From an uncultured delta proteobacterium (GTDB taxonomy: Bacteria; Desulfobacterota; Binatia; UBA9968): 40,379 nucleotides of DNA. This document shows positions 3,982 through 22,687 of this stretch, piece after piece. The stretch spans positions 1-40,379 of the forward strand of contig CAVTUQ010000035.1 in NCBI GenBank assembly GCA_963737905.1, in the 5' to 3' direction. The number at the start of each line of letters is the position of its first letter. Position 1 is the first letter of the stretch. A program made the position numbers and the translations under genes. Below the pieces are notes generated by a model. The model had not been told where the DNA came from, did not search any database, and saw only the letters and a list, made by a program, of their open reading frames with translations.

Positions 3982-4001
3982 GCAATTACGCTGCTGGCGA
4001 T

Positions 4002-4026
4002 GGGCCACACCCTGGACCCTTTTTTT
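4002..4026 (+). terminator. Possible intrinsic terminator after the aconitase gene
   Basis: GGGCCA-CACCC-TGGACCC hairpin followed by a T7 run. Confidence 0.35.
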
Positions 4027-4127
4027 CAGCAAATCGCTGCGTGGCGTCCCATGACAGCTGTATACTGCCCCGGGAATTTCTCCTCCGAATAGATGTCTCC
4101 GCCTTTTTGTGCCTATAAAACTTCGTC

Positions 4128-4847
4128 GTGATCTATTGGTTTTTGCTAGGGGGTAGCGCATTTGTGGCGTCCACGATAGCAGCGGTCGCTGGTTTTGGAG
4201 GAGCTGCGGTACTTTTGCCGATTTTGGTCTCCATGTTTGGGGTACGCGACGCGATCCCGATTTTAACTGTGGCACAACTGATTGGGAATGCCAGTCGCGT
4301 CTGGTTTAACCGCCGTGAGCTTGAGTTGCCGGTCGTCGGTTGGTTCGCCGTCGGGGGTGTGCCTGCCGCGCTCATCGGCGGATTTTTCTTTGCCTCTGCG
4401 CCACTCTCTTTCCTCATGCGACTCTTAGGTCTGTTCCTGATCATGACAGTCTCGTATCGCCACATCGGCAAAGCTAGCGCGCTGCGCGTTCCCCTGCGCG
4501 GATTTGCCATCCTGGGCGCTGTATTCAGTTTCCTTTCGGCACTCCTGGGTAGCGTAGGGCCGATCATGATCCCCTTTTTCCTGGCGTATGGATTGGTGAA
4601 GGGGGGTCTTATCGGCACTGAAGCGTTGGCCACAGTCGTGATGCACGTCACCAAGCTAGTGGCCTATCGACGAGTCTCGATTCTGACATCCGACAGTATT
4701 GTGATCGGTCTTGCCCTCGGGTCGATCATGATTTTCGGTTCGTTTGTGGGGAAAAAGATCCTCGACTGGTTACCTGAGCGACTATTCATCCTGCTCATTG
4801 AGGCGACGCTGATCGTCGCGGGTATCGGATTTTTGGTTCACGGGTGA
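4128..4847 (+). CDS. Sulfite exporter TauE/SafE (TSUP) family membrane protein
   Basis: VAGFGGAAVLLP N-terminal motif, about 8 hydrophobic segments, second-half LLGSVGP repeat. Confidence 0.85.
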   Translation: MIYWFLLGGSAFVASTIAAVAGFGGAAVLLPILVSMFGVRDAIPILTVAQLIGNASRVWFNRRELELPVVGWFAVGGVPAALIGGFFFASAPLSFLMRLLGLFLIMTVSYRHIGKASALRVPLRGFAILGAVFSFLSALLGSVGPIMIPFFLAYGLVKGGLIGTEALATVVMHVTKLVAYRRVSILTSDSIVIGLALGSIMIFGSFVGKKILDWLPERLFILLIEATLIVAGIGFLVHG

Positions 4848-5012
4848 ATCTCCACATACCGAACGTCATGGACACGTTTCGATTTCTTGACATTACGCCC
4901 TCTTTTTAGAGGTGAGGAGCTTATGATGACACGGACGGGGCCGGGGAAACCCCGATGGGCGATCTGATGCCGACGCGTCTGGATTTCTCTGATTTAAAAT
5001 GAGGATGCACCG

Positions 5013-5753
5013 ATGAAGATAAAGAAGTTGGATGGATTGGTTGACGAGCTTAGATTTGGCACGCGATTGTTGTTTCAAGAGTTAGGGGATCCCTGGGGAC
5101 ACATCGCCGTGCGTTTGCCCAAGAGCGACGGCTATGACGGATTCCTGCTCAAGCATGTTAGGGTAACACCACCCCCGGGAGAGCCGGATGCGGTTATGAT
5201 GTTTGACTACGATGGAAAACTTCTCGAAGGGGAACGCAGAGTCCCTTGGGAGCTGCCCTTATACACGGCTATCTTTAAGACACGGCCGGACGTCCAGAGT
5301 GTCATTCACACGCACCCGCTTGTCGCCACCGCGCTCACCATGGCGGGAAAGACAGTGTTCGCGATCACCCATCAATCGGCACCCTTCGAGCATGGCATCC
5401 CGATTTTCGGCGGTGATATGGTGAACACTCAAGAATTGGGAGAAGGGTTGGCGGAAACTCTTGGCAAACGACCGGCGGCGCTGCTCAAAGGCCACGGCGC
5501 GGTGGTCGTAGGTTCGAGCATCGCCCATGCGGTTCAGAGCACATTGTATCTGGAGCAAGCCGCTCAACAGCAAATTTGGGCCGCCACCCTCGGCACGCCG
5601 GAAGTCCTTGATCAGCGCCTTATCGACTTTCATAAGAATCTTCCTCCAGGTGACGGCGGCCTGGCACTCTGGTACACCAAAAAGCACTACGACTCGCAGC
5701 CGGAACCCGCTTCGCGCGCGAACCATGCACGCGGCAGGTCTAAGAAACGGTGA
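5013..5753 (+). CDS. Class II aldolase/adducin family protein
   Basis: GHIAVR, E-LPLY-AIFKTRPDVQSVIHTH, and LLKGHGAVVVG (Zn-binding His residues). Confidence 0.88.
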   Translation: MKIKKLDGLVDELRFGTRLLFQELGDPWGHIAVRLPKSDGYDGFLLKHVRVTPPPGEPDAVMMFDYDGKLLEGERRVPWELPLYTAIFKTRPDVQSVIHTHPLVATALTMAGKTVFAITHQSAPFEHGIPIFGGDMVNTQELGEGLAETLGKRPAALLKGHGAVVVGSSIAHAVQSTLYLEQAAQQQIWAATLGTPEVLDQRLIDFHKNLPPGDGGLALWYTKKHYDSQPEPASRANHARGRSKKR

Positions 5754-5797
5754 ACTTCACTTCGAAGGCTGAGGGGGTTTCATCCTGGGAAGGGACA

Positions 5798-6856
5798 CTA
5801 GACGTTGGGGCGTAGCTCCAATCCGCCTATGTCGAGCAGGACGCGTCCAAACTGCTGTCGCCCTTCGAAGACTCGATGGGCCTCTGCAACGTTTTCTAGT
5901 GGAAATATATGGCCGATGGCGACCTTCAAATCACCCGCGGCGTGCAGTGATAGAACTTTTTCGCATTCGTCGGGACGGCTTCCCTTGGAGAATATCACTG
6001 TGGCCTGATTGTAAATCAACGCCGAGACTCTGAACGACACCGACTCGCCGGCCGTGCTTCCGGGGATCACGATCCTGCCATTGGGCTTGAGGGTTGCGGC
6101 CAGCTTCTCGAACCCACCTCCGCCCACCGTATCGAAAATCAGATCGACGCCGCGCCCATGGGTGATCTCCTTTACCCGCTGAACAACGTTCTCGCTATTC
6201 GAGTCGATGACTTCATCGGCGCCTAACGCTCTAAGCCGGCGGGCTTTCTCGCCTCCGCGAACCGTGGCGATAACCCGTGCGCCGGTGTAGTGAGCGACTC
6301 CTATCCCGCCGCTCCCTACCGATCCGTTGGCGGCGCGAATCAGTACCGTTTCATCTTTCTGCAAGCGTGCCTGTGTAATGAGATTGTGCCAGGCGGTCAG
6401 CGTGCTTCCCTGAAAAGAGGCGGTCTGGTCGTGACCAAGGTCGCGCGGCTTGCGAATGAGACTCGCGGCTGGAACCGTCACATAATCTGCGTAGCCTCCC
6501 CAGGAGGAAACTCCCTGATACCTCGGCGAACGGCACATTTCCGGGAGGTCGCTCCGGCAATTGTCGCAAGTTCCGCAAGGTGTAATGTTCCGGGTGATGG
6601 CTTCATCCCCTTCTTTCCAACCCGCAACACCAGGAGCTACGGCCGCGACGACGCCGCTGGACTCTCGACCCAATTGAAATGGCAGCGGCGCGCGAAAGTA
6701 GCCATCCTGTCCGGCGCGCATGTTGATATCGTTGCGGCGGATGCTCGTCGCATAAACTCTCAGCAACACTTCTCCTTGCGACGCCTTGGGCACGGGTACT
6801 TCCTCCAAACGCAAGACTTCCGGCCCGCCGTATTCGTAAAATCGCACTGCTCTCAC
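5798..6856 (-). CDS. Medium-chain dehydrogenase/reductase (zinc-binding ADH / quinone reductase-like)
   Basis: MRAVRFYEYGGPEVL; structural-Zn CGTCDNC...C; AANGSVGSGG nucleotide loop; GRGVDLIFDTVGG; FPLENVAEAH...FGRVLL. Confidence 0.88.
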   Translation of the reverse strand: MRAVRFYEYGGPEVLRLEEVPVPKASQGEVLLRVYATSIRRNDINMRAGQDGYFRAPLPFQLGRESSGVVAAVAPGVAGWKEGDEAITRNITPCGTCDNCRSDLPEMCRSPRYQGVSSWGGYADYVTVPAASLIRKPRDLGHDQTASFQGSTLTAWHNLITQARLQKDETVLIRAANGSVGSGGIGVAHYTGARVIATVRGGEKARRLRALGADEVIDSNSENVVQRVKEITHGRGVDLIFDTVGGGGFEKLAATLKPNGRIVIPGSTAGESVSFRVSALIYNQATVIFSKGSRPDECEKVLSLHAAGDLKVAIGHIFPLENVAEAHRVFEGRQQFGRVLLDIGGLELRPNV

Positions 6857-7084
6857 AACGCGTCCTCGCTAAAGTGTCTCACTAGCGCTATTCAGCAAAT
6901 GAAACGCTCTCGTGAAACTTACGTCAAAGCTACGTGAATCAACGCCGGGGAATCTAGCACTTTCGCCAGGCGCCGCCAACGGGCCTTCGCCTCGAATCAT
7001 GGCGCTGGTGAAAAAAAGCGACCTTGACTCGACGAAACCTGTCATATACTAGAGAAAAAAGTTGGTGAAGATCCCGCTGTGTAA

Positions 7085-7165
7085 TGTCATTCTGAGGCGT
7101 TAGCCGAAGAATCTGTATTGTCTAGCGTTCAATGCATGAAATTCTTCACTTCGTTCAGAATGACA
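7085..7165. repeat. Palindromic TGTCATTCTGA...TCAGAATGACA intergenic repeat
   Basis: Perfect 11-bp terminal inverted repeat plus an inner GAAGAAT/ATTCTTC dyad. Confidence 0.75.
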
Positions 7166-7216
7166 AACGTGGGATTCCATCATTACGAGAGCGTCTCTCG
7201 CACAGGAGAATAACGT

Positions 7217-8065
7217 ATGGGTCGCATTGTATTTGCAGCCGGAGTTCCCCATGTGGGAGCGATACTGATCGGCATCAAGCGCGCGGGGGAGCAAGGCGAA
7301 CGGGTCAAGCAGACGTTTGATCGCCTGCGCGAAGAGCTGCGGGCTACCGAGCCGGACGCGCTGATCATCTTCGGCTCCGACCATTTCAAGTCTTTTTTTT
7401 ACAATCTGGTTCCCCGCTTTTGCATCGGGGTCGGCGGGGAGTGCGGCGCGTGGGATGAAGGCGTTTTATCGAGGGACATAGCCGACACGTATCGAGTCCC
7501 GGTCCACCAAGAGCTGGCGCGCGATATCCTCACAAAGGCCGTTGAAAGGGGTTTCGATTTGAATTCCGCCGAGGAACTCCGGCTCGATCATTCCTTTTAC
7601 TCACCCATCGAGCGGTTGACCCCCGGACACGATATTCCAATCGTCCCGATTGTCATGAACGTCGCGATCGCGCCCCGGCCGTCGCTGCGCCGCTGCTACG
7701 ATCTCGGGCGAGCGATCGGGGAAATTATCAGGAGCCGTCCGGGAGACCAGCGCGTGGCGGTTATCGGCACCGGCGGCATGTCCCACACCGTCGGCGTTCC
7801 GGAATACGGGTTTATCAATCCGGATTTGGACCGTCAGTTCCTGGGTTTGCTTGCAACCCATCACATCGAGGAAATCCTGGAAAACTGGACTCAGGAGTGG
7901 CTTGAACGAGAGGGCGGCAATGGCATGAACGAGATTCGCATGTGGCTCGCTATGGCCGGCGTCGTCGCTGGCGCCACCGGACAGGTTTTACTGTACGAAG
8001 AAATGCGTTCCTGGGGCACGGGGGCCGGAATCCTTCGAATGGACCCGGAAACGGCGAAGATTTAA
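7217..8065 (+). CDS. Class III extradiol ring-cleavage dioxygenase, LigB-like catalytic subunit
   Basis: GVPH, SDHF, LDHS, GTGGMSH and NEIRMW carry the LigB-type Fe ligands (His, His, Glu) and the catalytic His; SD AGGAG. Confidence 0.9.
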   Translation: MGRIVFAAGVPHVGAILIGIKRAGEQGERVKQTFDRLREELRATEPDALIIFGSDHFKSFFYNLVPRFCIGVGGECGAWDEGVLSRDIADTYRVPVHQELARDILTKAVERGFDLNSAEELRLDHSFYSPIERLTPGHDIPIVPIVMNVAIAPRPSLRRCYDLGRAIGEIIRSRPGDQRVAVIGTGGMSHTVGVPEYGFINPDLDRQFLGLLATHHIEEILENWTQEWLEREGGNGMNEIRMWLAMAGVVAGATGQVLLYEEMRSWGTGAGILRMDPETAKI

Positions 8066-8080
8066 CCTGAGGATCGACGG

Positions 8081-8356
8081 ATGAGTGCCTACCAGGTCCA
8101 GAAATTCATCTGGGAGCTCGACCGCAACCGGCCGTTGAAAGAAAAGTTTAAAGCCAATCCTGACGGTGTTCTTAGCAATTATCCGCTCACCGACGAAGAA
8201 AGGCGCGTTCTCAAAGAGGTAGACGCATGGGGATTGCGCGGGATGGCAGTCCACCCGATTTTGATCAGACAGTACACACGCGTTTTTGGCATCGAGCACG
8301 AAAAGATTTTCACGGATAGCCCGCATCATCCATTCACGTCCAAAGCGGCTCCGTGA
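8081..8356 (+). CDS. LigA-like small subunit of the extradiol dioxygenase
   Basis: YQVQKFIWEL...EKFKANPDGVLSNYPLTDEERRVL...GMAVHPILI is a LigA-type pattern; starts 15 bp after the LigB-like gene. Confidence 0.8.
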   Translation: MSAYQVQKFIWELDRNRPLKEKFKANPDGVLSNYPLTDEERRVLKEVDAWGLRGMAVHPILIRQYTRVFGIEHEKIFTDSPHHPFTSKAAP

Positions 8357-8452: not shown

Positions 8453-9436
8453 TTATCGGCTGGCCTTCTCAACGTAACTGCTATCGACCCACGTCTCCAG
8501 GGGCGGCACCGAAGTGATCCCGCCGTGCTCGACGGCAAGCTTGAGAAAATTGTTTATGCCTTTCATATTCGGGCGCGCATCCGTGCTGAGCATTTTCTGG
8601 CGGATGAGCATGTCGTAGGTTTGTTCTTGCCAGCTTGGTTTCCAATCGGGAAAGTAATCGAGCAATACGGCCATGGCAGCCTTCTTGTTGGCCGGATCGT
8701 GTAACCATCGGGTGGCCTTCACCAAAGCGCGCATCGTCGCGACCACGGTTTCCTCATTTTTCTCCGCCCATTTTCCATTCACGGTAAACCCGGCGTACTG
8801 AACATCTTTGAGGTAATCCTGGGTGAAGCCCAAACTCTTAAAGCCGTCGTCCAATAGGACAAAATCATCCGGCTGGCCGATCAAGCAACCCTGAATCTGT
8901 CCAGCTTTCATAGCGCCGATGCGGTCGCTGGATCGTCCGATGCTGAGATAGGAATAATCTCCTTTCTTAATCCCGTTGACGGTGAGCATCGTCGCGAACA
9001 TGGTATAAAAGGCGCCCCCGGGAGTCCCCGCCGCCAGCGTTTTTCCTTTCAGATCGCTCCAGCCTTTGATGTCTTTTGCAACGATGGCGCGGAAGCTGGG
9101 CTTTTCCTGCGACGTACCGATGAGCTTGAGCGGAGCGCCTTGCAGCAGCGGCTTTGCCGCGGAATCGATCGAATAGGTGTTCATATGAATGTCATTGGCC
9201 AGCAGCGCTTGAGTCTGGATCACGCTCGATCTTAAAATAATCACCTCGACATTTAGATTTTCCTGCTTGAAAAAGCCGCGTTTCACCGCGGCAAAGATCT
9301 GCCAATTGGAAGAGGAGTAGGCCGTTAAGGCGATCCGCACATTGGCCGGGTTGGGCGAAGCCCCCATTCCCGGGTTCGCTAAGAAAAACACGACGAGCAA
9401 CGCTAACGCTAAACTGGCGCTCCTCGGCACTGTCAT
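8453..9436 (-). CDS. ABC transporter substrate-binding protein, NMT1/THI5/SsuA-like (no cognate permease adjacent)
   Basis: Start moved to ATG 9436 (AGGAGG upstream); signal peptide; AVKRGFFKQENLNVE, DLKGKTLA, RALVKATRWL. Confidence 0.85.
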   Translation of the reverse strand: MTVPRSASLALALLVVFFLANPGMGASPNPANVRIALTAYSSSNWQIFAAVKRGFFKQENLNVEVIILRSSVIQTQALLANDIHMNTYSIDSAAKPLLQGAPLKLIGTSQEKPSFRAIVAKDIKGWSDLKGKTLAAGTPGGAFYTMFATMLTVNGIKKGDYSYLSIGRSSDRIGAMKAGQIQGCLIGQPDDFVLLDDGFKSLGFTQDYLKDVQYAGFTVNGKWAEKNEETVVATMRALVKATRWLHDPANKKAAMAVLLDYFPDWKPSWQEQTYDMLIRQKMLSTDARPNMKGINNFLKLAVEHGGITSVPPLETWVDSSYVEKASR

Positions 9437-9470
9437 ACGGCTCCTCCTATCGCAGTAGCCAAAAAACAAT

Positions 9471-10226
9471 CTAAGACTTCAAGTGACTTTCGAAAAACTG
9501 CAGTGCCCTCTCCCAGGCCAACCTCGCGCCCTCCGGATGGTAACGGCGAGCCGAATCATCGTGAAAAGCGTGTTGCGCCCCCGGATAGATAAAAAACTCA
9601 GCTTTCTTTCCATGCCGGTTTAGCTCTTGACGCAGTTGCTCGACGTGTTCCAAAGGACACACGACGTCTTGATCACCGACGTGGTATTGCGTTGGACAAG
9701 AGAGGGCCTTCGCAAAGGACAAATAAGATCTCTCTTTGCCATCCGGCGTTACTTCTCCCTTGACGATCACCGGTCCATAGAAATCGACGAAGCAGCGGAA
9801 CACGTCGGTTCGGCACACCGTGTAAAAACCTTTTCCTCCACCCATGCAGATCCCGTAAAGCGCGATGCGATCGCAAATCAACCCCTCACGATTTTTGAGA
9901 TATTGGTAGCCATTGACAAGATCGTCGAAGACTTGATCGTCGGGAAGCGCACGATCGATCTTTTGCCTCCGCTCCACGTCGGTGTCTCCGGCCGGAGGCT
10001 TTCCTCCGATGCGCGAAAAGAGATCGGGGGTGAGGATCATGTATCCCTGCCCGGCAAGCCGACGCGTGACATCCAATCGGTGTTCCGTCATTCCCGGATT
10101 TTCATGGATCATGACGATTCCCGGCCACGGACCCGTGCCGCCCGGCACCGCGAGGTATGCCCTCACTGCCGCGCCCCGGCTCGGATATTCGATCCATTCC
10201 GATGTTGCTTCCGAAGATGTGGCCAT
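9471..10226 (-). CDS. Dienelactone hydrolase family protein
   Basis: IHENPG, GICMGG nucleophile motif, GDQD, YPGAQHAF...ARLAWER; SD GGAGG. Confidence 0.92.
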   Translation of the reverse strand: MATSSEATSEWIEYPSRGAAVRAYLAVPGGTGPWPGIVMIHENPGMTEHRLDVTRRLAGQGYMILTPDLFSRIGGKPPAGDTDVERRQKIDRALPDDQVFDDLVNGYQYLKNREGLICDRIALYGICMGGGKGFYTVCRTDVFRCFVDFYGPVIVKGEVTPDGKERSYLSFAKALSCPTQYHVGDQDVVCPLEHVEQLRQELNRHGKKAEFFIYPGAQHAFHDDSARRYHPEGARLAWERALQFFESHLKS

Positions 10227-10292
10227 CTGTTACCTCCACTGGCTCCTTCAGGTACCAGGACTTCTTCTTTCAAGTCAAGCTCCGTTCATTCG

Positions 10293-10321
10293 TTGAATTC
10301 AGGCTTGCTACCCAATATGAT
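10293..10321 (+). promoter_or_regulatory. Putative sigma70 promoter of the carboxyltransferase operon
   Basis: TTGAAT-17 bp-TATGAT, ending 22 bp upstream of ATG 10344. Confidence 0.5.
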
Positions 10322-10343
10322 TCACGTTATGTCGGGAGGACAC

Positions 10344-11807
10344 ATGAACACCATTCGATTTGTTGACACCACACTTCGCGACGGCCATCAGAGTCTCTGG
10401 GCGGAAAACATGACCACCGGAATGATGCTCCCCATCGCCAAGCGGATGGACGACGCGGGATTCGAAGGCATCGAGCTCATTTCAGGTTCGCACCTCAAAA
10501 AAACCGTCCGGGAGCTTAAGGAAGATCCCTGGGAGCGGGTGCGGCTCGTCTCCAAAGAGATCCGGAAGACTCCCCTTCGCGTCATCGCCGGCAGAGTCAA
10601 CACTTTCGAATACAATCCTCCCTCAATGTACTGGCTGTTCATAGAGCGAATGTTTGCCAACGGCATTCGCGAAGCGCGCATTTCGGACGAATGGAACGAC
10701 TATGAAGGGTGGAAGTTCAGAGTCGGCGTCGCCCATGCGGTGGGAATGAAAGTGATTTTGAATCTCATCTACTCCGTATCCCCCAAGCACAGCGACGAAT
10801 ATTTCGCTGAACGAACGCGCCAGGCAGCCTCGCTCAAACCCTATCGTCTCTGCCTCAAAGATCCAGGAGGATTACTGACGCCGGAGCGAATGCAAACCCT
10901 TGTGCCGATCATTTTCGAGAATGCCAACGGAGTACCCGTAGAGCTGCACACCCATTGTACGACCGGCTTGGGTCCGCTTTGTTGCCTTGAGGGGATGAAG
11001 CTGGGAATTCGATCCATCAACACGGCGGTGCCTCCGCTAGCTGATGATTCTTCGAATCCTTCTCTGTTCAACGTCGCGAAAAACGCCCGCGCACTCGGTT
11101 ACCCAACCGAGATCGATGAAGAAATCCTAAGGCCGGTATCTAAACATTTCACCGCCATTGCCAAGCGCGAGGGTTTCACAATCGGCGCGCCGGTTGAATA
11201 CGATTTTTCTCAGTATCAACATCAGGTTCCCGGCGGTATGCTTTCGAACTTGCGGCATCAATTACGCAAGGTCGGCTTGGAAAGCAAATATCCCGAAGCC
11301 CTGGAGGAGACGATCCGAGTGCGCGCCGAATTTGGTTACCCGATCATGGTCACTCCCCTTTCGCAGTTTGTCGGCAGTCAGGCGGCGATCAATGTGATCG
11401 TCGGCGAGCGCTACAAAGAAGTCACGGACCAGGTGATCAAGTTCGCTTTAGGTCATGCTGGAGGGGAAGGCGCTCGCGACATGGACCCGAATGTGAAGGA
11501 CAAAATCCTTGATCGCCCGCGGGCCAAGGAGTGGGCCAAATGGCAACCGGACGAGCCTAGCGCCGACGATATGCGGCGGAGGCTCGACGCGGTCGGAACC
11601 TCCGACGAAGAGTTGCTGCTGCGCTGGATTGTCGGAAAAGAAGATATCGACGCCATGCGCGCGAATCCCCGCCCGGTCGAATATCTCAACGCGGAACAGC
11701 CGCTCGTCAACCTGTTGCAAGAGTTGAGCAAGCGCACAGACTGTAGCCAGATCCACGTCCAACGGCCGGGGTTCTCGATCACGCTGGAGCGGCGGGCGGG
11801 AGTGTGA
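10344..11807 (+). CDS. Pyruvate carboxylase subunit B / oxaloacetate decarboxylase alpha-like carboxyltransferase, without a biotinyl domain (copy 1)
   Basis: True start is ATG 10344 after GGGAGG; 487 aa; DTTLRDGHQSL, EDPWER, CLKDPGG, ELHTHCTTG, HQVPGGM, GYPIMVTPLSQ; no AMKM motif. Confidence 0.88.
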   Translation: MNTIRFVDTTLRDGHQSLWAENMTTGMMLPIAKRMDDAGFEGIELISGSHLKKTVRELKEDPWERVRLVSKEIRKTPLRVIAGRVNTFEYNPPSMYWLFIERMFANGIREARISDEWNDYEGWKFRVGVAHAVGMKVILNLIYSVSPKHSDEYFAERTRQAASLKPYRLCLKDPGGLLTPERMQTLVPIIFENANGVPVELHTHCTTGLGPLCCLEGMKLGIRSINTAVPPLADDSSNPSLFNVAKNARALGYPTEIDEEILRPVSKHFTAIAKREGFTIGAPVEYDFSQYQHQVPGGMLSNLRHQLRKVGLESKYPEALEETIRVRAEFGYPIMVTPLSQFVGSQAAINVIVGERYKEVTDQVIKFALGHAGGEGARDMDPNVKDKILDRPRAKEWAKWQPDEPSADDMRRRLDAVGTSDEELLLRWIVGKEDIDAMRANPRPVEYLNAEQPLVNLLQELSKRTDCSQIHVQRPGFSITLERRAGV

Positions 11808-11822
11808 ACGAAGAAGATGCCC

Positions 11823-11912
11823 AGTTCAAAGTTCAACGTTCAAAGTTCAAAGTTGCCGGATTGAGAGAATTTGTGACTTAAACCTTGAACATTGAACTTG
11901 GAACCTTGAACT
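11823..11912. repeat. Inverted heptamer arrays (GTTCAAA)x4 ... (CTTGAAC)x4
   Basis: Read directly; forms a long imperfect hairpin in the intergenic gap. Confidence 0.8.
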
Positions 11913-11978
11913 AAATTTCCGGCAGTGCAATAAGAGAGGTAATTTTGATTCGAGGCAAGTATAAGGAGGACTTATTCT

Positions 11979-12836
11979 ATGGCTAGCGACATCGTCGCGA
12001 TCGACGTTCACGTTCACCTATCCGATGAATTTACCCAGAAAGCCAAAGGTTCGCGCACGGCCCAAATGGCGAAATACTTTGGCCGTGAAAGACCGCCGGT
12101 CTCCATCGACGAGATGGCGGATCAGTACCGCGCGCGCAAGATGATGGCCGTCATCATGAATACGCGGGACGAGACGGTTACCGGGCTCACCCCTGTGCCG
12201 AACGACCACGTTGCCGGTGCGGTAAAAAAACATCCCGATGTATTTTTGGCGTTTGGCGCCATCGATCCTTGGACCGGGAAACTGGCTCTGGACGAAATCA
12301 AACGTTGCAAAGACCTGGGACTATCAGGAATGGGCGAGCTGAATCCGGCGCGGCAACATTTTTTCCCTAACGACGTGCGCTTTTATCCTCTATGGGAAGA
12401 ATGCGCGAAACTCAACATGCCGATTCTTTTCCATGGCGGTATGGCGGCGGCCGGCGCGGGAACTCCGGGCGGGATGGGCATCAAGTTGAAATATAGCCAG
12501 CCCATCGCCATCGATGAGGTCGCGGCGGATTTTCCGGAGCTGAAAATCATCAGCGCCCACCCGACCTGGCCGTGGACCGCGGAAAGCTTGGCCATCGCCC
12601 GTCACAAGGCGAACTATTACATCGATCTTTCGGGTTGGGCACCGAAGTACTTTCCGGCTGAGCTCGTCCACAACATCAACACGCTGCTCCAGGATAAAGC
12701 GATGTTCGGTTCCGACTGGCCGGCGATCGGCGTCGAGCGCTGGCTGGAAGAATTCCAACAGGTTAATATGAAACCTGAAGTGCGGAAGAAGATCATGTTG
12801 GATAACGCCAAGAAGTTCTTCGGTCTGGAATTCTAA
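11979..12836 (+). CDS. Amidohydrolase_2 family protein, CouO-like (4-hydroxyphenyl-beta-ketoacyl-CoA hydrolase type)
   Basis: AIDVHVH, PNDHVA, QHFFPND, ILFHGG...GAGTPGGMGIKLKYSQP, SAHPTWPW, DLSGWAPKYFP, FGSDWP; SD TAAGGAGG. Confidence 0.85.
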   Translation: MASDIVAIDVHVHLSDEFTQKAKGSRTAQMAKYFGRERPPVSIDEMADQYRARKMMAVIMNTRDETVTGLTPVPNDHVAGAVKKHPDVFLAFGAIDPWTGKLALDEIKRCKDLGLSGMGELNPARQHFFPNDVRFYPLWEECAKLNMPILFHGGMAAAGAGTPGGMGIKLKYSQPIAIDEVAADFPELKIISAHPTWPWTAESLAIARHKANYYIDLSGWAPKYFPAELVHNINTLLQDKAMFGSDWPAIGVERWLEEFQQVNMKPEVRKKIMLDNAKKFFGLEF

Positions 12837-12849
12837 GCAGGACTGCTGA

Positions 12850-12954
12850 CCACGAAGGACGCGAAGCTTCATTGCGCTCAATCGCCTCGTTACAAGTAGA
12901 TAAGTATCCTGCGCTCGTCGATTCGTGGCGCCTCGCCTCTGAGATCCTTCGTGG
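12850..12954. repeat. Intergenic inverted repeat CCACGAAGGA...TCCTTCGTGG
   Basis: Perfect 10-bp terminal inverted repeat. Confidence 0.55.
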
Positions 12955-13003
12955 AGCACCCTGCAAGAAGGGATTTTCAGTGAGAGGTTTGCAGAAAAAA
13001 TAC

Positions 13004-14474
13004 GTGAATACCGACGGCATTAAATTTGTCGACACCACCATCCGCGACGGCCATCAAAGCCTATGGGCGGAGAATATGACCACCGGCATGATGCTGCCGG
13101 TGGCGGAAGCGATGGATCGCGCAGGCTTTGACGCCATCGAGCTGATCTCCAGCTCGCACTTGAAGAAGTGCGTCCGGGAGCTGAAGGAAGATCCGTGGGC
13201 GCGTGTGAGGTTGATGAGCCAACGGATTACGCGCACGCCGCTCCGGTTGAACGCCGGCCGCTTTAGCGCCTTCGACCTCACCCCGCGGTCGATGTATCGC
13301 CTCTTCATGGAACGGATGGCTGCCAACGGCATCCGCGAAGCGCGCATTTCCGAAGAGTGGAACGAGCTGGAAGGTTGGACGTGGAAAACGCAAGTAGCCC
13401 GTGACGTCGGCATCAATCCGGTTCCCAACATCATTTATTCCGTCTCGCCCAAACACACCGATGAGTATTTCGCGCAGCGCACCCGCGACGCGGCGTCGCT
13501 CAAAGTAAATCGGCTCTGTCTCAAGGATCCCGGAGGTCTGCTCACGCCGGAACGGATAAAAACGTTGGTGCCGATCATGTTTCAAAACGCCAACGGCATC
13601 GAAATCGAGCTGCACACGCACTGTACTACCGGGCTCGGACCGCTGTGTTGCCTGGAGGCGGTCAAGCTGGGCATCAAAATCGTCAACACGGCTCTGCCGC
13701 CCCTCGGCCGACGGTTCGTCGAACCCGTCGCTGTTCAATGTCGCGAAGAACCTCCGCGCCCTCGGTTACAAGACCTTGATCGACGAAGAGCTACTCAAGC
13801 CGGTTTCCGAGCATTTCACGTTCATCGCCAAGCGCGAGGGCTTCCCCATCGGTGCACCGGTGGAATACGACTATTCCCAATACCAACACCAAGTGCCCGG
13901 CGGCATGATCTCCAATCTGCGTCACCAACTGCGCAAGGTCGGCTTGGAACAAAAGATCGATCAGGCATTGGAAGAGACCATGCAAGTGCGCGCGGAGCTG
14001 GGCTACCCGATCATGGTCACGCCGCTTTCGCAATTTGTCGGAAGCCAGGCGGCCATCAACGTCATCGTCGGCGAGCGCTACAAAGAAGTGACCGACCAGA
14101 TCATCCAGTACGCTCTCGGTTATTGGGGCCGAGAAGGGGCCGAGTTGATGGAACCCACCGTGAAAGCAAAAATCCTCGACCGTCCGCGCGCCAAGGAGTG
14201 GGCAGAGCGGCAACCGCCGGAACCGACGGTTCAAGAACTGCGCAAAAAAATGAATGCGGAGGGCGTATCGGACGAAGAATTCTTGCTGCGCTGGAACCTG
14301 AGCATAGACGAGATCGAGACGATGCGCGCCGCGGGCGCACCCAAGGAGTACTTCACCGCGCGCCAGCCCCTGGTTAATTTGATCGACGCGCTGAGCAAGC
14401 GAAGCGACTATCGCCAGATCGTTATTCAAAAGGGGGAAACGGTCATATCGCTGCAAAAAGGCGCTTCGGCGTGA
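13004..14474 (+). pseudogene. Carboxyltransferase paralogue (copy 2), split by a +1 frameshift that may be a sequencing error
   Basis: GTG start at 13004. Removing one G at 13706-13707 (CTCGGCCGAC) restores NTALPPLADGSSNPSLFNVAKN, colinear with copy 1, giving 489 aa with the same motifs. Confidence 0.85.
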
Positions 14475-14563
14475 GTCCTGAGTTCTTTTTGAATTTTCAA
14501 ATGTTTCACCGAGTATAATTTCTCTCCCCTCGACAGAACTCCCGATTCACTCTGTATAATCCC

Positions 14564-14929
14564 ATGGATCGCTTCTTCTTTGCTGCCGGCTCTTTGCTGG
14601 CCTTTTTAGCGGTGGCGCTGGGTGCGTTCGCGGCTCACAGCCTCAAGGCACGTCTCCCCGCTGATATGCTCGCCATCTTCGAAACCGGCGTGCGCTATCA
14701 CATGTATCACGCCCTTGCTTTGCTGGCGGTCGCCTGGGCAGCGTCGCGCTGGCCTGAAAGCAGCGCCGTCACCGCCGGTTGGGCGTTCATTATCGGCATC
14801 GCCATCTTCTCTGGTAGTCTTTACATCTTGAGCTTCACGGGAATGCGTTGGCTAGGAGCCATCACCCCCATCGGCGGCGTTGCCTTTCTCCTGGGCTGGC
14901 TACTCCTCGCCTGGGCCGCTTGGCGGTAG
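14564..14929 (+). CDS. DUF423 (YgdD/TMEM256) family membrane protein
   Basis: AVALGAFAAH, FETGVRYHMYHALAL, IFSGSLY, LGAITPIGG. Confidence 0.93.
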   Translation: MDRFFFAAGSLLAFLAVALGAFAAHSLKARLPADMLAIFETGVRYHMYHALALLAVAWAASRWPESSAVTAGWAFIIGIAIFSGSLYILSFTGMRWLGAITPIGGVAFLLGWLLLAWAAWR

Positions 14930-14938
14930 TAGAGAACT

Positions 14939-15036
14939 GTTCAAAACGTTCCAACCGTTCAAATCGTTCAAAACGTGCGCGCCGCCTATGGCTTATCGCG
15001 ATCCAGCTGTATGCCATAAGCGATCAGCCATAGGCG
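14939..15036. repeat. Composite repeat: four GTTCAAnnC 9-mers plus a CGCCTATGGCT...AGCCATAGGCG hairpin
   Basis: A reverse-oriented homologue lies at 34187-34311, and the hairpin module alone at 30713-30784. Confidence 0.75.
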
Positions 15037-15047
15037 TCTGCTTCGCG

Positions 15048-15076
15048 TTGACTGTCCGTAAACCTTCAAGTACCTT
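15048..15076 (+). promoter_or_regulatory. Putative sigma70 promoter giving a leaderless ald mRNA
   Basis: TTGACT-17 bp-TACCTT; the ATG begins 7 nt after the -10 box; no SD sequence. Confidence 0.5.
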
Positions 15077-15082
15077 GAATTT

Positions 15083-16201
15083 ATGATCGTCGGCGTTCCA
15101 AAAGAAATCAAGACCGAAGAAAATCGCGTCGCGGTGACTCCCACAGGCGTAGCCGGCTTTGTTTCGCGCGGGCATAAAGTTTTGATCGAAAAAGGCGCCG
15201 GTCTCGGTAGCGGGCTCGCGGATCGGGTTTACGAGGCCGCCGGCGCTACGCTCGTCGAGTTGGCAGAAGGTGTTTGGCGCCAGGCCGATTTGATTATGAA
15301 GGTCAAAGAGCCTCAACCCTCGGAATTCTCGCTGCTGCGCAAAGGACTCATCCTCTTCACCTACCTCCACCTGGCTGCCAGTGAGAGCGTTACGCGCGAG
15401 CTGCTCGAACGAAAGGTCACAGCCATTGCCTACGAAACCATACAACTCGACGACGGCTCACTGCCGCTCCTAACGCCCATGAGTGAAATTGCCGGACGCC
15501 TCTCGATTCAAGTAGGCGCTTGGTGCCTCCAGGCGGAAAATGACGGACGCGGCATTCTTCTCGGCGGCGCCTCCGGTGTCCGTCCGGGTAAAGTGGTCAT
15601 CCTCGGGGCAGGCATGGCCGGCACCGCCGCTTGCCAGATTGCAGCCGGCATGGGCGCCTATGTCAGTATTCTGGATATTCATCCAACCAAGCTTCGTTAT
15701 GTGCACGATATTCTCGGCGGTCATGTCACGACTCTCATGTCGAACCGCGCCAACGTGGAAGAAGCGGTCGTCGATGCCGACCTGGTCATCGGCTCCGTGC
15801 TGATTCCCGGTGCCAAAGCGCCCAAACTCGTTTCCCGCTCTTTGGTTCAACGGATGAAGGCGGGTTCGGCATTCGTCGATATTTCCATCGATCAGGGCGG
15901 TTGTGCCGAGACTTCTCGTCCGACGACGCATCGCCAACCGATCTATGTGGAAGAAGACGTCGTGCATTACTGCGTAACCAACATGCCGGCCATTGTGCCA
16001 CATACGTCGACCTACGCGCTGACGAACTCGACACTTTCCTACGGCTTGGAGCTCGTTAACCGCGGTTTTCCCCAGGCGCTGGCGAGAAACAAGGCGCTGG
16101 CCAAGGGACTCAACACCTATGACGGGAAAATCACCCACGAAGGTGTGGCCACTGCCTTCAACCTTCCATTGACCCGGGTCGAGGAGGTGATTCGCACATG
16201 A
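15083..16201 (+). CDS. ald: Alanine dehydrogenase
   Basis: MIVGVPKEIKTEENRVA, MKVKEP, FTYLHLA, IAYETI, PMSEIAGR, DISIDQGGC, HYCVTNMP. Confidence 0.95.
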   Translation: MIVGVPKEIKTEENRVAVTPTGVAGFVSRGHKVLIEKGAGLGSGLADRVYEAAGATLVELAEGVWRQADLIMKVKEPQPSEFSLLRKGLILFTYLHLAASESVTRELLERKVTAIAYETIQLDDGSLPLLTPMSEIAGRLSIQVGAWCLQAENDGRGILLGGASGVRPGKVVILGAGMAGTAACQIAAGMGAYVSILDIHPTKLRYVHDILGGHVTTLMSNRANVEEAVVDADLVIGSVLIPGAKAPKLVSRSLVQRMKAGSAFVDISIDQGGCAETSRPTTHRQPIYVEEDVVHYCVTNMPAIVPHTSTYALTNSTLSYGLELVNRGFPQALARNKALAKGLNTYDGKITHEGVATAFNLPLTRVEEVIRT

Positions 16202-18871: not shown

Positions 18872-19250
18872 CAAGACCTCCATGTCTTGATTTTTTTCAA
18901 GTGTAACTTGCTGGGGGTTGCAAACGCAATAACAAATTCAATCGTAAAAAAGCCAGTAGCAGCTCCAAACCCGCGACGGCGCTTCTTCTGCACGAATCAA
19001 TTTCCCTTGACTTTGTCTTAAAACTTCGGAAACTATGCAGGCAATAAGGGACTTTGTCTAATCTTATCCCTTTCAACACAGTCACGTGTTGCTCCAAACC
19101 GTCGGCAAGTCCGATCCGCCCATCCATTCTCTAGTGAGAAGAACGTTATCCACGGAGGCGCGACATAGAATAAGATATGGACGAGATAACTCATCCCTGA
19201 GGATTGAGATCGTTCTCTGCATCGGGAGCCCGCGAAACCAAGAGACCATT

Positions 19251-20174
19251 TTGCCCTTGCATTTCAATTTCCTTCAGACTTTCATCCGGCTTTCACTCAT
19301 CATTGCCGTTTTTTCGGGAGGAGGCTGTTCCAGGGCCGTCAGTCCCGAGGTTCGCTATGTCCCGGCCGGCGACCTGCTTGATATCGTAAGAGACTTCCAA
19401 CGCCTTGCCCGAGAGGATACTTACCGATTTCCGATTCCCAAAGACGTCACCGGCGTCAACATTATGAAAGCCACCCTGGTGCGACTCGACGACTACGAAA
19501 AAAAGAACCCCGGGAAATTCACCGACATCATTCAATTCAATAAAGCATTAGCCTTGGAACGGTTGAGAGAATACGCGCAGGCGGCCGCCCTCTACCGGAA
19601 GGTGGCCGAAACCGAAGGCCGTCTAGGCAAGGAAGCAGCCAAGAATGCCGAAATTCTTGATTCGTTCCTGTTGATCCTGGATCGACCGCTGGCGAGCGAC
19701 GACCCTTTTGAATATATCAAAGGGCTCGACGAGAAGGTCGCCGCCTGGAATCAGCTCATCAGCAAGCATCAAGGGACCGCCTACGAGTTTCTCGCTCGCG
19801 TGGAGGAAGAACGAGTGGATCGCGCCAAAGTCGCCTTCGTCGAAGCCAACCGATACCGCCTCAAAGAAGGAAACCAACTGGTGATTCTGGGCTATACCCA
19901 GCTATCGACCAAACACCGGCAAAGTAAAAATATCTATCGTTTTTTGATCGACTTTGGCGACTTCTACCAGCTACTTGCAAAAGAGTACGCGTCTCAGTAC
20001 GATCCGGAGGGTCTGAGCTTTGATCCAAAAACCTTCGATCTGTTCGTGAAGTCAGCCCTCAGGCTCTATAATGAAGTCGCCCAAGTGGATGGCATCCTAG
20101 AAAAGATCGAGGCTCAGGGTAAGATTGAAGCCGTGCGGGGGTTTCTTGAGAAAACGACAAGGTTGAACCGATGA
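19251..20174 (+). CDS. Hypothetical helical-repeat (TPR-like) lipoprotein
   Basis: The ORF opens at 19086, but the likely start is TTG 19251. Hydrophobic stretch plus SGGGC lipobox; IQFNKALALERLREYAQAAALYRKV is TPR-like. Confidence 0.7.
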   Translation: MPLHFNFLQTFIRLSLIIAVFSGGGCSRAVSPEVRYVPAGDLLDIVRDFQRLAREDTYRFPIPKDVTGVNIMKATLVRLDDYEKKNPGKFTDIIQFNKALALERLREYAQAAALYRKVAETEGRLGKEAAKNAEILDSFLLILDRPLASDDPFEYIKGLDEKVAAWNQLISKHQGTAYEFLARVEEERVDRAKVAFVEANRYRLKEGNQLVILGYTQLSTKHRQSKNIYRFLIDFGDFYQLLAKEYASQYDPEGLSFDPKTFDLFVKSALRLYNEVAQVDGILEKIEAQGKIEAVRGFLEKTTRLNR

Positions 20175-22687
20175 CGGCAAAACTAATCTTGACCACCATA
20201 CTCTTGCTGGTCCTTGGCGGCGCTCCTCTTTGGCCCAAGCCGTGCCACGGCCAAGACCGAGAACAGGTGCTCGAAAAGATTCTCAACCCGATGCCGGATT
20301 ATGATCCCTTTGAGAAATCGACGCTAGCAACACCACAGTTCTTTCCCGACGCGGTGGACAAAAGATCTCGCGAACTCCTGATCGATGCGTTGACCCATCA
20401 ACAGGAATCGCTCAAGGATCACCTGCAGTTTTTCAAGGAAGAAGACACCCGGCTCCAGAAGGAATACAACACCTCCACCGGTTTGACAGATCGCGCGCAG
20501 GATCTGGTGAACAACACGATTCAAGACCGGCAACGGTATCTTGCCGCCCAGGAAGAGGCTCTGAAACATGCCTCAGCACCGGAGCGAAAGAAATATCTTC
20601 AGTCGATCATCAATAATGATGACTTGAACCAGGCGGATGATTTGATGCGGCAAAGCTCGACGAATCAATGGGGCGGCGTCCTCAATCGTATGATGAGTTC
20701 AGTGGATCTTGCCGGGGTCGCATCGGGCAATTACATCGGCGCGGCAGCGGAAACCGTCATTAGCCAACTCTATGCCCTTGCCGATCGAGACATGGCCATC
20801 GAAGAGCGCCGCGCACTGGCGCGTGATCTCGATCATCTCAAACGTTTTCCTAATGACCCGCGGAATGCCGAAATCCTGAGGCAAGTGGAAGGGATCGAGA
20901 CTAAAAAGAAAAGCGTTTTAGCGAAAAAACAACTCGCTCGAGGCGATGAGGCTCTTGCCAAGGGCGAGCTGGAGAAGGCCCTGTTTTATTATGAGATGGC
21001 ATCTTTCATCGAGCCCGAATCGACGGCCACCGAGAGGGCTCTACAAAAAGCCACCGAGCTCTTCCGGCAACAGGAGGAAGCAAGAAAGAAAGGGCTCGCT
21101 TCCGGCACAGAGGGCTCTTTCTCCAGCGATCAAGAGCAGGATGTAGGACAACTTCTGAGCGCGCTCAGTCTGCATGATCCGGCTCTCATCGAGCGCTCTT
21201 CGATCGATGTAGAAAAAAAATATCATGAAAAACCACTCGGGGATGCGGCGCTGGACGCCGAAGCCGTCGCGTTGGAAATCCGGGGACAGCACGAGGCGGC
21301 CAAAAGAATTATTGACCAGCTCGCCCGGTCATCGAAAAGTCCTGACCTGCAAAAGCGTGCAGCCGCGCTATTGGCGAGTCCGGAATACAATCTGCTCGGC
21401 ACTTTCCAAGACGCTCGTAATGACCGCCGCATAGAATCCGTCAAATATGTTCTGCTCGGCGAAGACCTGCTCAAGAAAAACCTTATCTATGCCGCTGGCG
21501 CCATGGTCGCCGGGGGTCCCAGCGGCGCCGCAACCCTTGGGGCTATCAACGCCTTGATGTTGGGTAACAATCTTGTCACCGTTCTTTCGAACAATCCGAT
21601 TTCCGCTCAACCGGTGATCGACGCGGGTGTCGCCTATATTCGTAACCATCCGAAATCGGAAGACGCTTCTGAGGTCTACACGGTTCTCGCGGATGCCTAC
21701 GCCGAGCGGGGCATGTTTGACAAAGCCGTCCATTTCCACCAGTTGGCCGGTACGCCAAAGGAGAAAATCGCGGCGCTGAAAGAAAAGGCGGCCAGTGCCA
21801 TGCTCAACGCCGCCACAAAGGGCAAAGGCAGGAGCACCCAGCAGTATTATTTGACGACCATCATCGATGAATATCCGGAAAGCCCGGCGGCGGCGGAAGC
21901 CACGAAGAAGCTTTCGGAGTTGGTCAAGAGCGACAATCAAGGGTTGCGCATGAGCAAACAATTTCTCGTGGAAAACCCCGAACTGTACGGACCCAACGGA
22001 CTCGGGCTGAAGGCATCTCTATTGGACGGAAACCCCAGCAATATGGAGTTGGCGCAGCGCGGGGTCAATCTTTTAAATGATAACGAGATCCTAATTCATT
22101 ACCAGACGCCGTGGGGGATACGGAGCCAGAGTTATCCGCTATCGACACCCGCCACGGAACGCTTTTTCGCAACCCTGCGCCAAAAAAACCAAGAGGTCGC
22201 GTTGGCCGACATCGACCAGCGAGCGAAAGGAACCGTCGGCGGCATCAAGAACATGCCAACCCCCATCCTGCAGGGCGTGCGCGCCAAGAGCACCGACGAG
22301 CCAGAGGACAATCAAGATTCCACCTTTTCATTTCTTCGCCAGGCGGATGGCACGGCGCCTTCCTTTCCCCGCGTTCTGGATCACGAGCTGCTGAGCGAGA
22401 ACGAGATCAATCCGGGAAGCAAGTATCTGCTGCCGCCGATTCAGGGAAGTATTTCCGCCAGTCGCTTCAGCCTGACCGGCGCGCTGCCGACAGGGCTCTG
22501 GGGTAACCAGATCGCCATCGGCAACGATCCGAAGAGTCCCTATGCGGGGGTTCAACTGCCGATTCCTCTTCTCGAGGGTTTCATCCCGGTTGATTTCATG
22601 GTCCAGGGAAGACCCGGCGGTTTCTCGGTCTATCCCAGGATTCACACCCGCGGCGATAAGGGCGCAGATCCGGAATTGTACAAATAA
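20171..22687 (+). CDS. Large exported hypothetical protein with TPR-like repeats and a beta-rich C-terminus
   Basis: 838 aa; signal peptide; TPR-like LARGDEALAKGELEKALFYYEMA, LADAYAERGMFDKAVHFH and IIDEYPESPAAAEA; ATGA overlap with the upstream gene. Confidence 0.8.
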   Translation: MTAKLILTTILLLVLGGAPLWPKPCHGQDREQVLEKILNPMPDYDPFEKSTLATPQFFPDAVDKRSRELLIDALTHQQESLKDHLQFFKEEDTRLQKEYNTSTGLTDRAQDLVNNTIQDRQRYLAAQEEALKHASAPERKKYLQSIINNDDLNQADDLMRQSSTNQWGGVLNRMMSSVDLAGVASGNYIGAAAETVISQLYALADRDMAIEERRALARDLDHLKRFPNDPRNAEILRQVEGIETKKKSVLAKKQLARGDEALAKGELEKALFYYEMASFIEPESTATERALQKATELFRQQEEARKKGLASGTEGSFSSDQEQDVGQLLSALSLHDPALIERSSIDVEKKYHEKPLGDAALDAEAVALEIRGQHEAAKRIIDQLARSSKSPDLQKRAAALLASPEYNLLGTFQDARNDRRIESVKYVLLGEDLLKKNLIYAAGAMVAGGPSGAATLGAINALMLGNNLVTVLSNNPISAQPVIDAGVAYIRNHPKSEDASEVYTVLADAYAERGMFDKAVHFHQLAGTPKEKIAALKEKAASAMLNAATKGKGRSTQQYYLTTIIDEYPESPAAAEATKKLSELVKSDNQGLRMSKQFLVENPELYGPNGLGLKASLLDGNPSNMELAQRGVNLLNDNEILIHYQTPWGIRSQSYPLSTPATERFFATLRQKNQEVALADIDQRAKGTVGGIKNMPTPILQGVRAKSTDEPEDNQDSTFSFLRQADGTAPSFPRVLDHELLSENEINPGSKYLLPPIQGSISASRFSLTGALPTGLWGNQIAIGNDPKSPYAGVQLPIPLLEGFIPVDFMVQGRPGGFSVYPRIHTRGDKGADPELYK

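Follow-up and report, generated by a model that had tools for sequence, protein, structure and literature searches.

Gene content of the locus

We analysed a window of 40,379 nt on contig C35 (CAVTUQ010000035.1) of assembly GCA_963737905.1, which derives from an uncultured member of Binatia (UBA9968). The window encodes two paralogous carboxyltransferases (CT), here named CT1 and CT2, which lie on either side of an amidohydrolase gene, AH2, and which end in a short C-terminal tail. This tail, and the question of how two carboxyltransferases without a carrier domain of their own might be served with carboxybiotin, are the subject of this study. The source genome has an estimated completeness of 87%.

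For comparison, we used a set of 79 related loci, containing 108 full-length open reading frames (ORFs) of tailed CTs, five complete genomes of relatives and a lineage sample of 61 genomes of the class, of which 9 belonged to the same order as the source genome and 52 to other orders. Public contigs covering the region were available from four runs (X1, X5, X7 and X9).

An earlier note on this DNA had described the two genes as colinear paralogues of about 488 aa, without a biotinyl domain but with the motifs RDGHQ, LKD, HTH and VTP, and had located a tail at the end of each. The translations of both copies contain all four motifs (the first in the form RDGHQS), Pfam finds a biotinyl domain in neither, and both tails lie where the note had placed them. 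Both proteins are CTs of the PYC/OadA type, with 69–72% identity to each other. The description of CT2 needs correction, as the gene is not one open frame in this assembly: a single extra base splits it into two frames, a frameshift that the note had overlooked. That base was absent from near-identical contigs of X1, X5 and X9, while the contig of X7 stops at the site, and the equivalent of CT2 was contiguous in 36 related loci. Because the public contigs lack the base and the gene is contiguous elsewhere, the most likely cause of the break is a mistake of assembly or variation between strains, and the population most likely carries an intact gene.

A tailed CT paralogue on contig C4 of the same genome (G000:C4:20434-21901; L016 8441-9900) was also frameshifted. 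Thus, two of the four tailed paralogues of the genome are broken, both in G/C-rich runs, which suggests assembly indels. Contigs of run X9, an RNA library, covered parts of AH2 and CT2, although this is not evidence of transcription. Another ORF of 487 aa in the window (34337-35800) was considered as a third copy and rejected, as it encodes an aldehyde dehydrogenase.

Table 1. Features annotated in and around the CT1-AH2-CT2 locus; positions are those of the window.
Feature	Position	Strand	Description
CT1	10344..11807	+	ATG start, 487 aa; HMGL-like TIM barrel and PYC_OADA, biotinyl domain absent (Pfam)
Tail 1 (CT1 residues 453-487)	11700..11807	+	Helix 453-463, strands 469-474 and 477-482 (AF2 model)
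Inverted repeat of GTTCAAN heptads	11823..11911	.	Intergenic hairpin in the CT1-AH2 spacer; 7 pattern matches vs 0.25 expected
AH2	11979..12836	+	Amidohydro_2 (metal-dependent TIM-barrel hydrolase/decarboxylase superfamily), 285 aa; Pfam E 1.9e-49, whole profile
CT2, N-terminal part	13004..13705	+	GTG start at 13004; HMGL-like; 72% identical to CT1 residues 2-233
CT2, extra base	13706	+	Frame-shifting base in a C/G run, from alignment to CT1 and six relatives
CT2, C-terminal part with tail 2	13707..14474	+	PYC_OADA E 1.8e-28; 69% identical to CT1 residues 231-487
Tail 2	14367..14474	+	Helix plus hairpin; tail HMM E 1.1e-18
NMT1-like solute-binding protein	8453-9469	-	Pfam; divergent from CT1
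Dienelactone hydrolase	9471-10226	-	Pfam; divergent from CT1
DUF423 membrane protein	14564-14929	+	Pfam; downstream of CT2
Alanine dehydrogenase	15083-16201	+	Pfam; downstream of CT2

Assignment to the carboxyltransferase class

The CT fold, an HMGL-like domain followed by PYC_OADA, was recovered with both Pfam domains above cut-off in CT1 (E 1.8e-15 and 1.2e-26, respectively) and across the two halves of CT2, and there was no Biotin_lipoyl match in CT1. The closest structure in the PDB was the CT subunit PycB (5ks8_C, E 2.8e-62); the CT domain of OadA (2nx9) and transcarboxylase 5S (1rqb, E 3.9e-52) were also among the best solved relatives. The AlphaFold2 (AF2) model of CT1 had a mean pLDDT (per-residue model confidence) of 91.7, and a Foldseek search with it returned 5ks8, 5S and the OadA CT domain at the top, with TM-scores of 0.77–0.84 to 5ks8, 1rqb, 2nx9 and pyruvate carboxylase (PC). 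Residue for residue, CT1 shares with PycB and OadA the metal and catalytic positions, namely the Asp of RD (in RDGHQS), the Lys of LKD, both His of HTH and the Thr of VTP, and all of them are also present in CT2; the Lys of LKD corresponds to the residue that is carbamylated in known members.

CT1 scored best among the NCBIfam models with PRK09282 (320.9 bits, cut-off 402), and reached 279.7 bits with oadA (cut-off 756.5), 281 with PRK14041 (cut-off 734) and 197 with the 5S equivalog (cut-off 827). CT1 and CT2 belong to a distinct subfamily of the carboxyltransferase class and are not orthologues of PycB, OadA or 5S. With 3909 cluster representatives at E<=0.001, the wider family is a large one, and its members carry public names such as oxaloacetate decarboxylase alpha subunit, biotin carboxyl carrier protein and hypothetical protein.

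We also observed distant tailed members with 29–38% identity (P0146, P0154, P0160, P0170, P0215 and P0244), in which the Lys of LKD is replaced by Glu, Tyr or Leu. In P0226 and P0263 the RD of RDGHQS is missing as well. From its sequences, this branch without the Lys may be chemically different or inactive.

The C-terminal tail

The tail was kept in all 108 full-length ORFs of the 79 loci, none of which ran on into a biotinyl domain, and it was still recognisable in family members at about 29% identity. In the CT1 model, it follows a linker (441-452) of low confidence; the pLDDT blocks given for the tail were 62/68/81/84/66. A hidden Markov model (HMM) of the tail, run over the ORFs of the source genome, was significant for four only, namely CT1, CT2 and the paralogues on contigs C1 and C4. 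A Pfam scan of the tail alone returned nothing at E<=0.01.

A helix plus hairpin of the same lengths starts the AccB protein of the source genome and 12 AccB proteins of related loci. The AF2 model of the former places the helix at residues 7-19 and the strands at 24-29 and 32-37; this model was of low confidence (pLDDT 51.4, 13 sequences) and was used for secondary structure only. The HHalign comparison, which was repeated with broader alignments after a narrow set had given a weak result, aligned 152 non-redundant tails with 20 AccB N-terminal domains over 31 columns with a score of 28.9 (Prob 91.7, P 8e-7), and it recovered the register that one would set by eye. This score was equalled in none of 200 controls with shuffled columns (highest 16.2, mean 8.3, sd 1.95), and with the alignment reversed it fell to 11.7. 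The likeness to the N-terminal segment of AccB that the earlier note had drawn by eye was therefore borne out, in the profile comparison and in the matching predicted secondary structure; at the profile level the tail resembles the AccB N-terminal module, and the sequences themselves are far apart.

According to the part of PMC11160672 that deals with it, the first 30 residues of the biotin carboxyl carrier protein (BCCP) of E. coli form a predicted alpha/beta/beta motif that oligomerises, and this motif may build an oligomeric barrel in the centre of acetyl-CoA carboxylase (ACC) tubes. In AF2 models described in a section of PMC10863985, the AccB N-terminal domain attaches to AccC. Finally, a complex prediction for CT1 residues 444-487 with the N-terminal 44 residues of AccB from the same genome scored 0.21 and 0.17 (mark 0.32), a result which, run without controls, speaks neither for nor against an interaction.

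Linkage to accB and accC

Whole-genome searches placed no match to PF00364 (biotinyl domain), PF02785 (biotin carboxylase, BC) or PF03977 (OadB) on C35, which agrees with the note's statement that no BCCP, BC or OadB gene is in the window. The biotinyl carrier is missing both from the CT proteins and from the window, and a partner in trans is suggested by the linkage of related genes to accB-accC and by gene fusions.

The order seen in the window, CT-AH2-CT, was kept in 36 of the 79 loci. In 11 loci the order was accB-accC-CT-AH2, and one more locus had accB-accC-CT at a contig end. The order was CT-AH2 at a contig end in 5 loci and AH2-CT, with the upstream part cut, in 3; in all, AH2 adjoined a tailed CT in 55/79 loci. 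The accBC-linked CTs formed one clade (n=12, support 0.89), sister to a clade with all the CT1-type and CT2-type genes (n=97, support 1.0).

Five fusion proteins of 670–679 aa (from Logan, JGI and ENA; e.g. P0272) combine a tailed CT with a complete AccB. In these, the tail and the AccB N-terminal module stand in tandem, followed by an Ala/Pro linker and the biotinyl domain. Canonical CTs fused to an AccB-type BCCP (P0199, P0213) carry the AccB N-terminal module at the position of the tail.

The source genome has two biotin carboxylases, one in the accB-accC pair on contig C7 and one in a PccB-BC-BCCP cluster on C26. Its only ACCA/Carboxyl_trans matches were two PccB-type genes, in the C26 cluster and in a cluster on C45. 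The five complete relatives each had 2–3 BC genes, only weak partial ACCA matches and 6–12 PYC_OADA matches. Tailed CT paralogues numbered 4 to about 10 in each of these six genomes, all of which have AccB paired with AccC but no true AccA. In the lineage sample, a strong AccA match was found in none of the 9 genomes of the same order vs 28 of the 52 genomes of other orders, and tailed CTs (E<=1e-90) in 7/61 genomes, all of the same order, in which two genomes had none; as the genomes compared are kin and not independent, this pattern is a lineage trait and not a statistical association. The matches per genome of the order, leaving out the source genome, numbered 2 to 10. At the same threshold the source genome gave 5 matches, which correspond to 3 genes plus split pieces. 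Taken over the source genome, the five relatives and the sample of the order, we found no AccA/AccD-type acetyl-CoA transferase in this lineage.

The earlier note had proposed that the two enzymes borrow a carrier and a carboxylase encoded elsewhere. A source elsewhere is supported by the accB-accC-CT-AH2 operons, the fusions and the presence of AccB-AccC without AccA. "Borrow" may be the wrong word, because no acetyl-CoA carboxylase transferase was found for AccB/AccC.

Several further observations concern these gene clusters. The only accB-accC pair of the source genome (C7:259806-261670; L021 5804-7671) lies inside a peptide-type ATP-binding cassette (ABC) transporter string, in the order SBP_bac_5, accB, accC and two permeases. 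The accBC-linked loci have unrelated housekeeping genes upstream of accB, and several of them (e.g. L068 12318-15327) have an isochorismatase-family gene, an LVIVD-repeat protein and a major facilitator superfamily (MFS) transporter downstream of AH2. An LVIVD protein was also found near a canonical CT on C10 of the source genome. Besides OadB and a PccB-type transferase, the string at C45:42380-45510 (L020) contains a small membrane protein and a BCCP of 76 aa that lacks an N-terminal module; the string looks like a sodium-pumping acyl-CoA decarboxylase, separate from the tailed CTs.

AH2, the spacer and neighbouring genes

The AH2 translation contains DVHVH, with the HxH start, and FGSDWP, with the late Asp, both typical of Amidohydro_2. 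The note had likened this protein to a beta-keto C-C hydrolase, CouO, which we regard as a candidate label only; CouO belongs to the amidohydrolase superfamily, as stated in a passage of PMC4737184. The closest PDB entry was an uncharacterised protein (3IRS, E 8.1e-25), and known decarboxylases matched AH2 weakly and over residues 72-152 only. No NCBIfam family was assigned to AH2, and an ESM Atlas search with it returned generic amidohydrolase clusters only.

In the spacer between CT1 and AH2, the arms of the predicted hairpin are runs of the GTTCAAN heptad (fold -29.4 kcal/mol, z -3.4). At its edges, contigs of all four public runs accumulate and end, as they would for a dispersed repeat, and translations elsewhere in the source genome hint at GTTCAAN heptads in other spacers. 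In an Rfam scan of positions 9000-16000, the hairpin matched microRNA models below the threshold, as expected by chance, and nothing else was found, and a promoter and terminator scan of 9400-15200 gave nothing above chance.

NMT1-like binding proteins were found beside all three tailed-CT loci of the source genome, and a dienelactone hydrolase beside two. The block of dioxygenase, binding protein and hydrolase upstream of CT1 is kept in two related loci (L031 and L061). The neighbours of the other two tailed-CT loci of the genome include an RraA-like aldolase (next to the C1 paralogue), MmgE/PrpD, an arylmalonate-decarboxylase-like protein, a CoA transferase and a dienelactone hydrolase. Downstream of CT2, synteny extends to DUF423 and alanine dehydrogenase in most related loci. 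Further upstream in the window (1705-8356) we observed an aconitase, a TauE-like exporter, a class II aldolase, a Zn-dependent dehydrogenase and a LigB/LigA-like extradiol dioxygenase. Two adjacent ORFs (362 and 838 aa; 19086-22687) had no Pfam match at E<=1e-4.

Discussion

The tailed CTs have the domains and catalytic motifs of a known class, and the conserved tail, its profile similarity to AccB and the gene linkage all point towards AccB and AccC. That the tailed CTs work with AccB/AccC is, in our view, likely. Our fuller interpretation, which we prefer with moderate confidence, is that CT1 and CT2 are exchangeable CT subunits of a multi-subunit biotin carboxylase, and that they would dock to a shared AccB/AccC through the tail, a putative homologue of the AccB N-terminal alpha/beta/beta assembly module. 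The single AccB-AccC pair on C7 would provide the carrier and the ATP-dependent biotin carboxylase. AccC would carboxylate the biotin on AccB, using ATP, and the tail would tether the CT dimer to AccB/AccC, either by joining the oligomer of AccB N-terminal modules or by occupying their site on AccC. The carboxybiotin could then swing into the CT site and carboxylate an enolisable 2-oxo acid. One BC-BCCP pair would in this manner serve many exchangeable CTs, located in different catabolic gene clusters. The altered stretches at the substrate pocket make plain pyruvate an improbable substrate and some other 2-oxo acid a probable one. For AH2, the probable role is hydrolysis, hydration or decarboxylation of the carboxylated product, or else formation of the substrate. 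A CT1/CT2 heterodimer and a carboxylate-then-cleave or transcarboxylase route, as raised in the earlier note, are guesses.

Several of our results weigh against this interpretation. At the active site, the GGATFD stretch is not kept (SGSHLK in CT1), and the Arg of the LLRGQN stretch is displaced in CT1 (AGRVN) and absent in close orthologues such as P0012. The Ala of GGATFD sits at the biotin pocket, as described in the relevant part of PMC5059739, and both CT1 and CT2 have a Ser at this position. Because these two stretches have diverged, the binding of the substrate, and perhaps that of biotin, probably differs from that of the known enzymes; CT1 also missed all the NCBIfam cut-offs. Regarding the tail, the earlier HHalign comparison of 109 tails with 13 closely related AccB N-termini gave a Prob of only 20% (P 0.0011), and hmmsearch over the ORFs of the source genome gave no cross-detection, as the tail HMM found only the four tails and the AccB N-terminal HMM only AccB. 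Regarding the linkage, the 12 accBC-linked loci are one lineage and not 12 independent events, 23/79 loci have a CT without a neighbouring AH2 or accBC, and in the five complete genomes the AccC-type gene lies at least 19 kb from any CT. The source genome, itself incomplete, contains two further canonical CTs (C27 and C10) that have neither a tail nor a BCCP and stand alone; as they also depend on a carrier, AccB/AccC could mainly serve them.

The tailed CTs might not use biotin at all. Other DRE-TIM enzymes act alone as decarboxylases or aldolases, and CT1 and CT2 could be metallo-lyases of this sort, acting on oxaloacetate-like or oxalo-substituted aromatic ring-cleavage products, with a tail that only holds their own oligomer together. 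The catabolic neighbours (the LigB/LigA-like dioxygenase, the dienelactone hydrolase and, for the C1 paralogue, the RraA-like aldolase) would suit such a role, and so would the absence of carrier and carboxylase from the window, the diverged GGATFD and RGQN stretches, the exchange of the carbamylated Lys for Glu, Tyr or Leu in distant members and the weak NCBIfam matches to 4-hydroxy-2-oxovalerate aldolase and homocitrate/isopropylmalate synthases. Yet in CT1 and CT2 themselves the Lys of LKD and also the Thr of VTP are conserved and align with PycB and OadA, the gene directly follows accB-accC in 12/79 loci, five proteins are fused to a complete AccB, and the tail resembles specifically the assembly module of AccB, so we consider a biotin-independent lyase unlikely. 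A use of biotin without ATP appears similarly improbable to us. In that case CT1 and CT2 would be the halves of a transcarboxylase that moves CO2 between 2-oxo acids by a shared BCCP, or would serve a sodium-pumping decarboxylase as its alpha subunits. In 36/79 loci one enzyme gene lies between two different CTs, the closest known CT without a carrier is transcarboxylase 5S, and the genome does encode an OadB pump; but the sole OadB sits in a cluster of its own with the 76-aa BCCP, which lacks the N-terminal module, and a PccB-type transferase, the 5S equivalog score is far below its cut-off, and in the sister clade a single CT follows accC, the gene of an ATP-dependent carboxylase, in one gene string.

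The tail could also be a functionless vestige: an AccB-type carrier, formerly part of the same chain as the CT, would have lost its linker and biotinyl domain, and the canonical fusions P0199 and P0213, with the AccB N-terminal module exactly at the tail position, are what such a history would predict. A relic of this kind would hardly be expected in 108/108 full-length ORFs and in members down to about 29% identity, and the five tailed fusions retain the tail in tandem with the AccB N-terminal module, not replaced by it; we regard this origin without function as very improbable.

Compared with known systems, the proposed docking of CT1 and CT2 to AccB/AccC through the tail has partial parallels. 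PycB of Methylobacillus flagellatus (5KS8) is the best match in sequence and fold (Foldseek rank 1-2), with the same CT fold and catalytic motifs, and the text of PMC5059739 on its structure describes a short module behind the CT domain by which the CT subunit is fastened to BC, a separate subunit. PycB has a BCCP of its own, and its docking piece is a four-stranded sheet wrapping a helix donated by the BC subunit, whereas CT1 and CT2 have no BCCP, a module in the form of an AccB-resembling helix plus hairpin, and different GGATFD/RGQN stretches. Transcarboxylase 5S of Propionibacterium shermanii (1RQB; TM 0.81) is likewise a CT-only protein of about 500 aa that relies on a separate small biotin carrier. 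It works free of ATP, together with the 12S acyl-CoA transferase and the 1.3S carrier, whereas the genes linked to tailed CTs are accB and accC, with no 12S-type gene adjacent. In the AccB of heteromeric acetyl-CoA carboxylase, the module matches the tail in the predicted succession and lengths of one helix and two strands, but it is N-terminal, with an Ala/Pro linker and then the biotinyl domain behind it, while in CT1 and CT2 it ends the catalytic subunit. In the actinobacterial acyl-CoA carboxylases, several beta subunits (AccD) share a single alpha subunit (BC-BCCP), and the similarity is that one biotin-carboxylating module serves several exchangeable CTs; their transferases are of the crotonase-like acyl-CoA class, with CoA esters as substrates, in contrast to the tailed CTs, which are of the TIM-barrel 2-oxo-acid class and bear a carrier-like tail.

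Going by sequence, the catalytic class of the tailed CTs is a known one, and their subunit organisation and docking device would be new. Searches of a limited body of literature found no description of a CT with an AccB-like tail or of an accB-accC-CT-amidohydrolase cluster, and the word "biotin" did not occur in the Binatota genome paper PMC8262859.

Biotin carboxylases are textbook enzymes, and to our knowledge their known subunit arrangements are few. If docking through the tail is correct, these transferases would attract a free carrier by imitating the module with which the carrier itself assembles. Such a holoenzyme design would be new; it would also give a function to the poorly understood AccB N-terminal module and explain why these genomes retain accB-accC without accA/accD. 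More tentatively, the AccB-AccC of this order could have been lost to acetyl-CoA carboxylase and act as a common, ATP-driven supply of carboxybiotin for a radiating plug-in family of TIM-barrel CTs, 2 to 10 per genome, each recruited by its tail and paired with a downstream enzyme, in undescribed carboxylate-then-process routes for 2-oxo acids from the breakdown of aromatics and organic acids. The tailed CTs would then indicate that uncultured bacteria abundant in soil carry out several carboxylation reactions not yet described.

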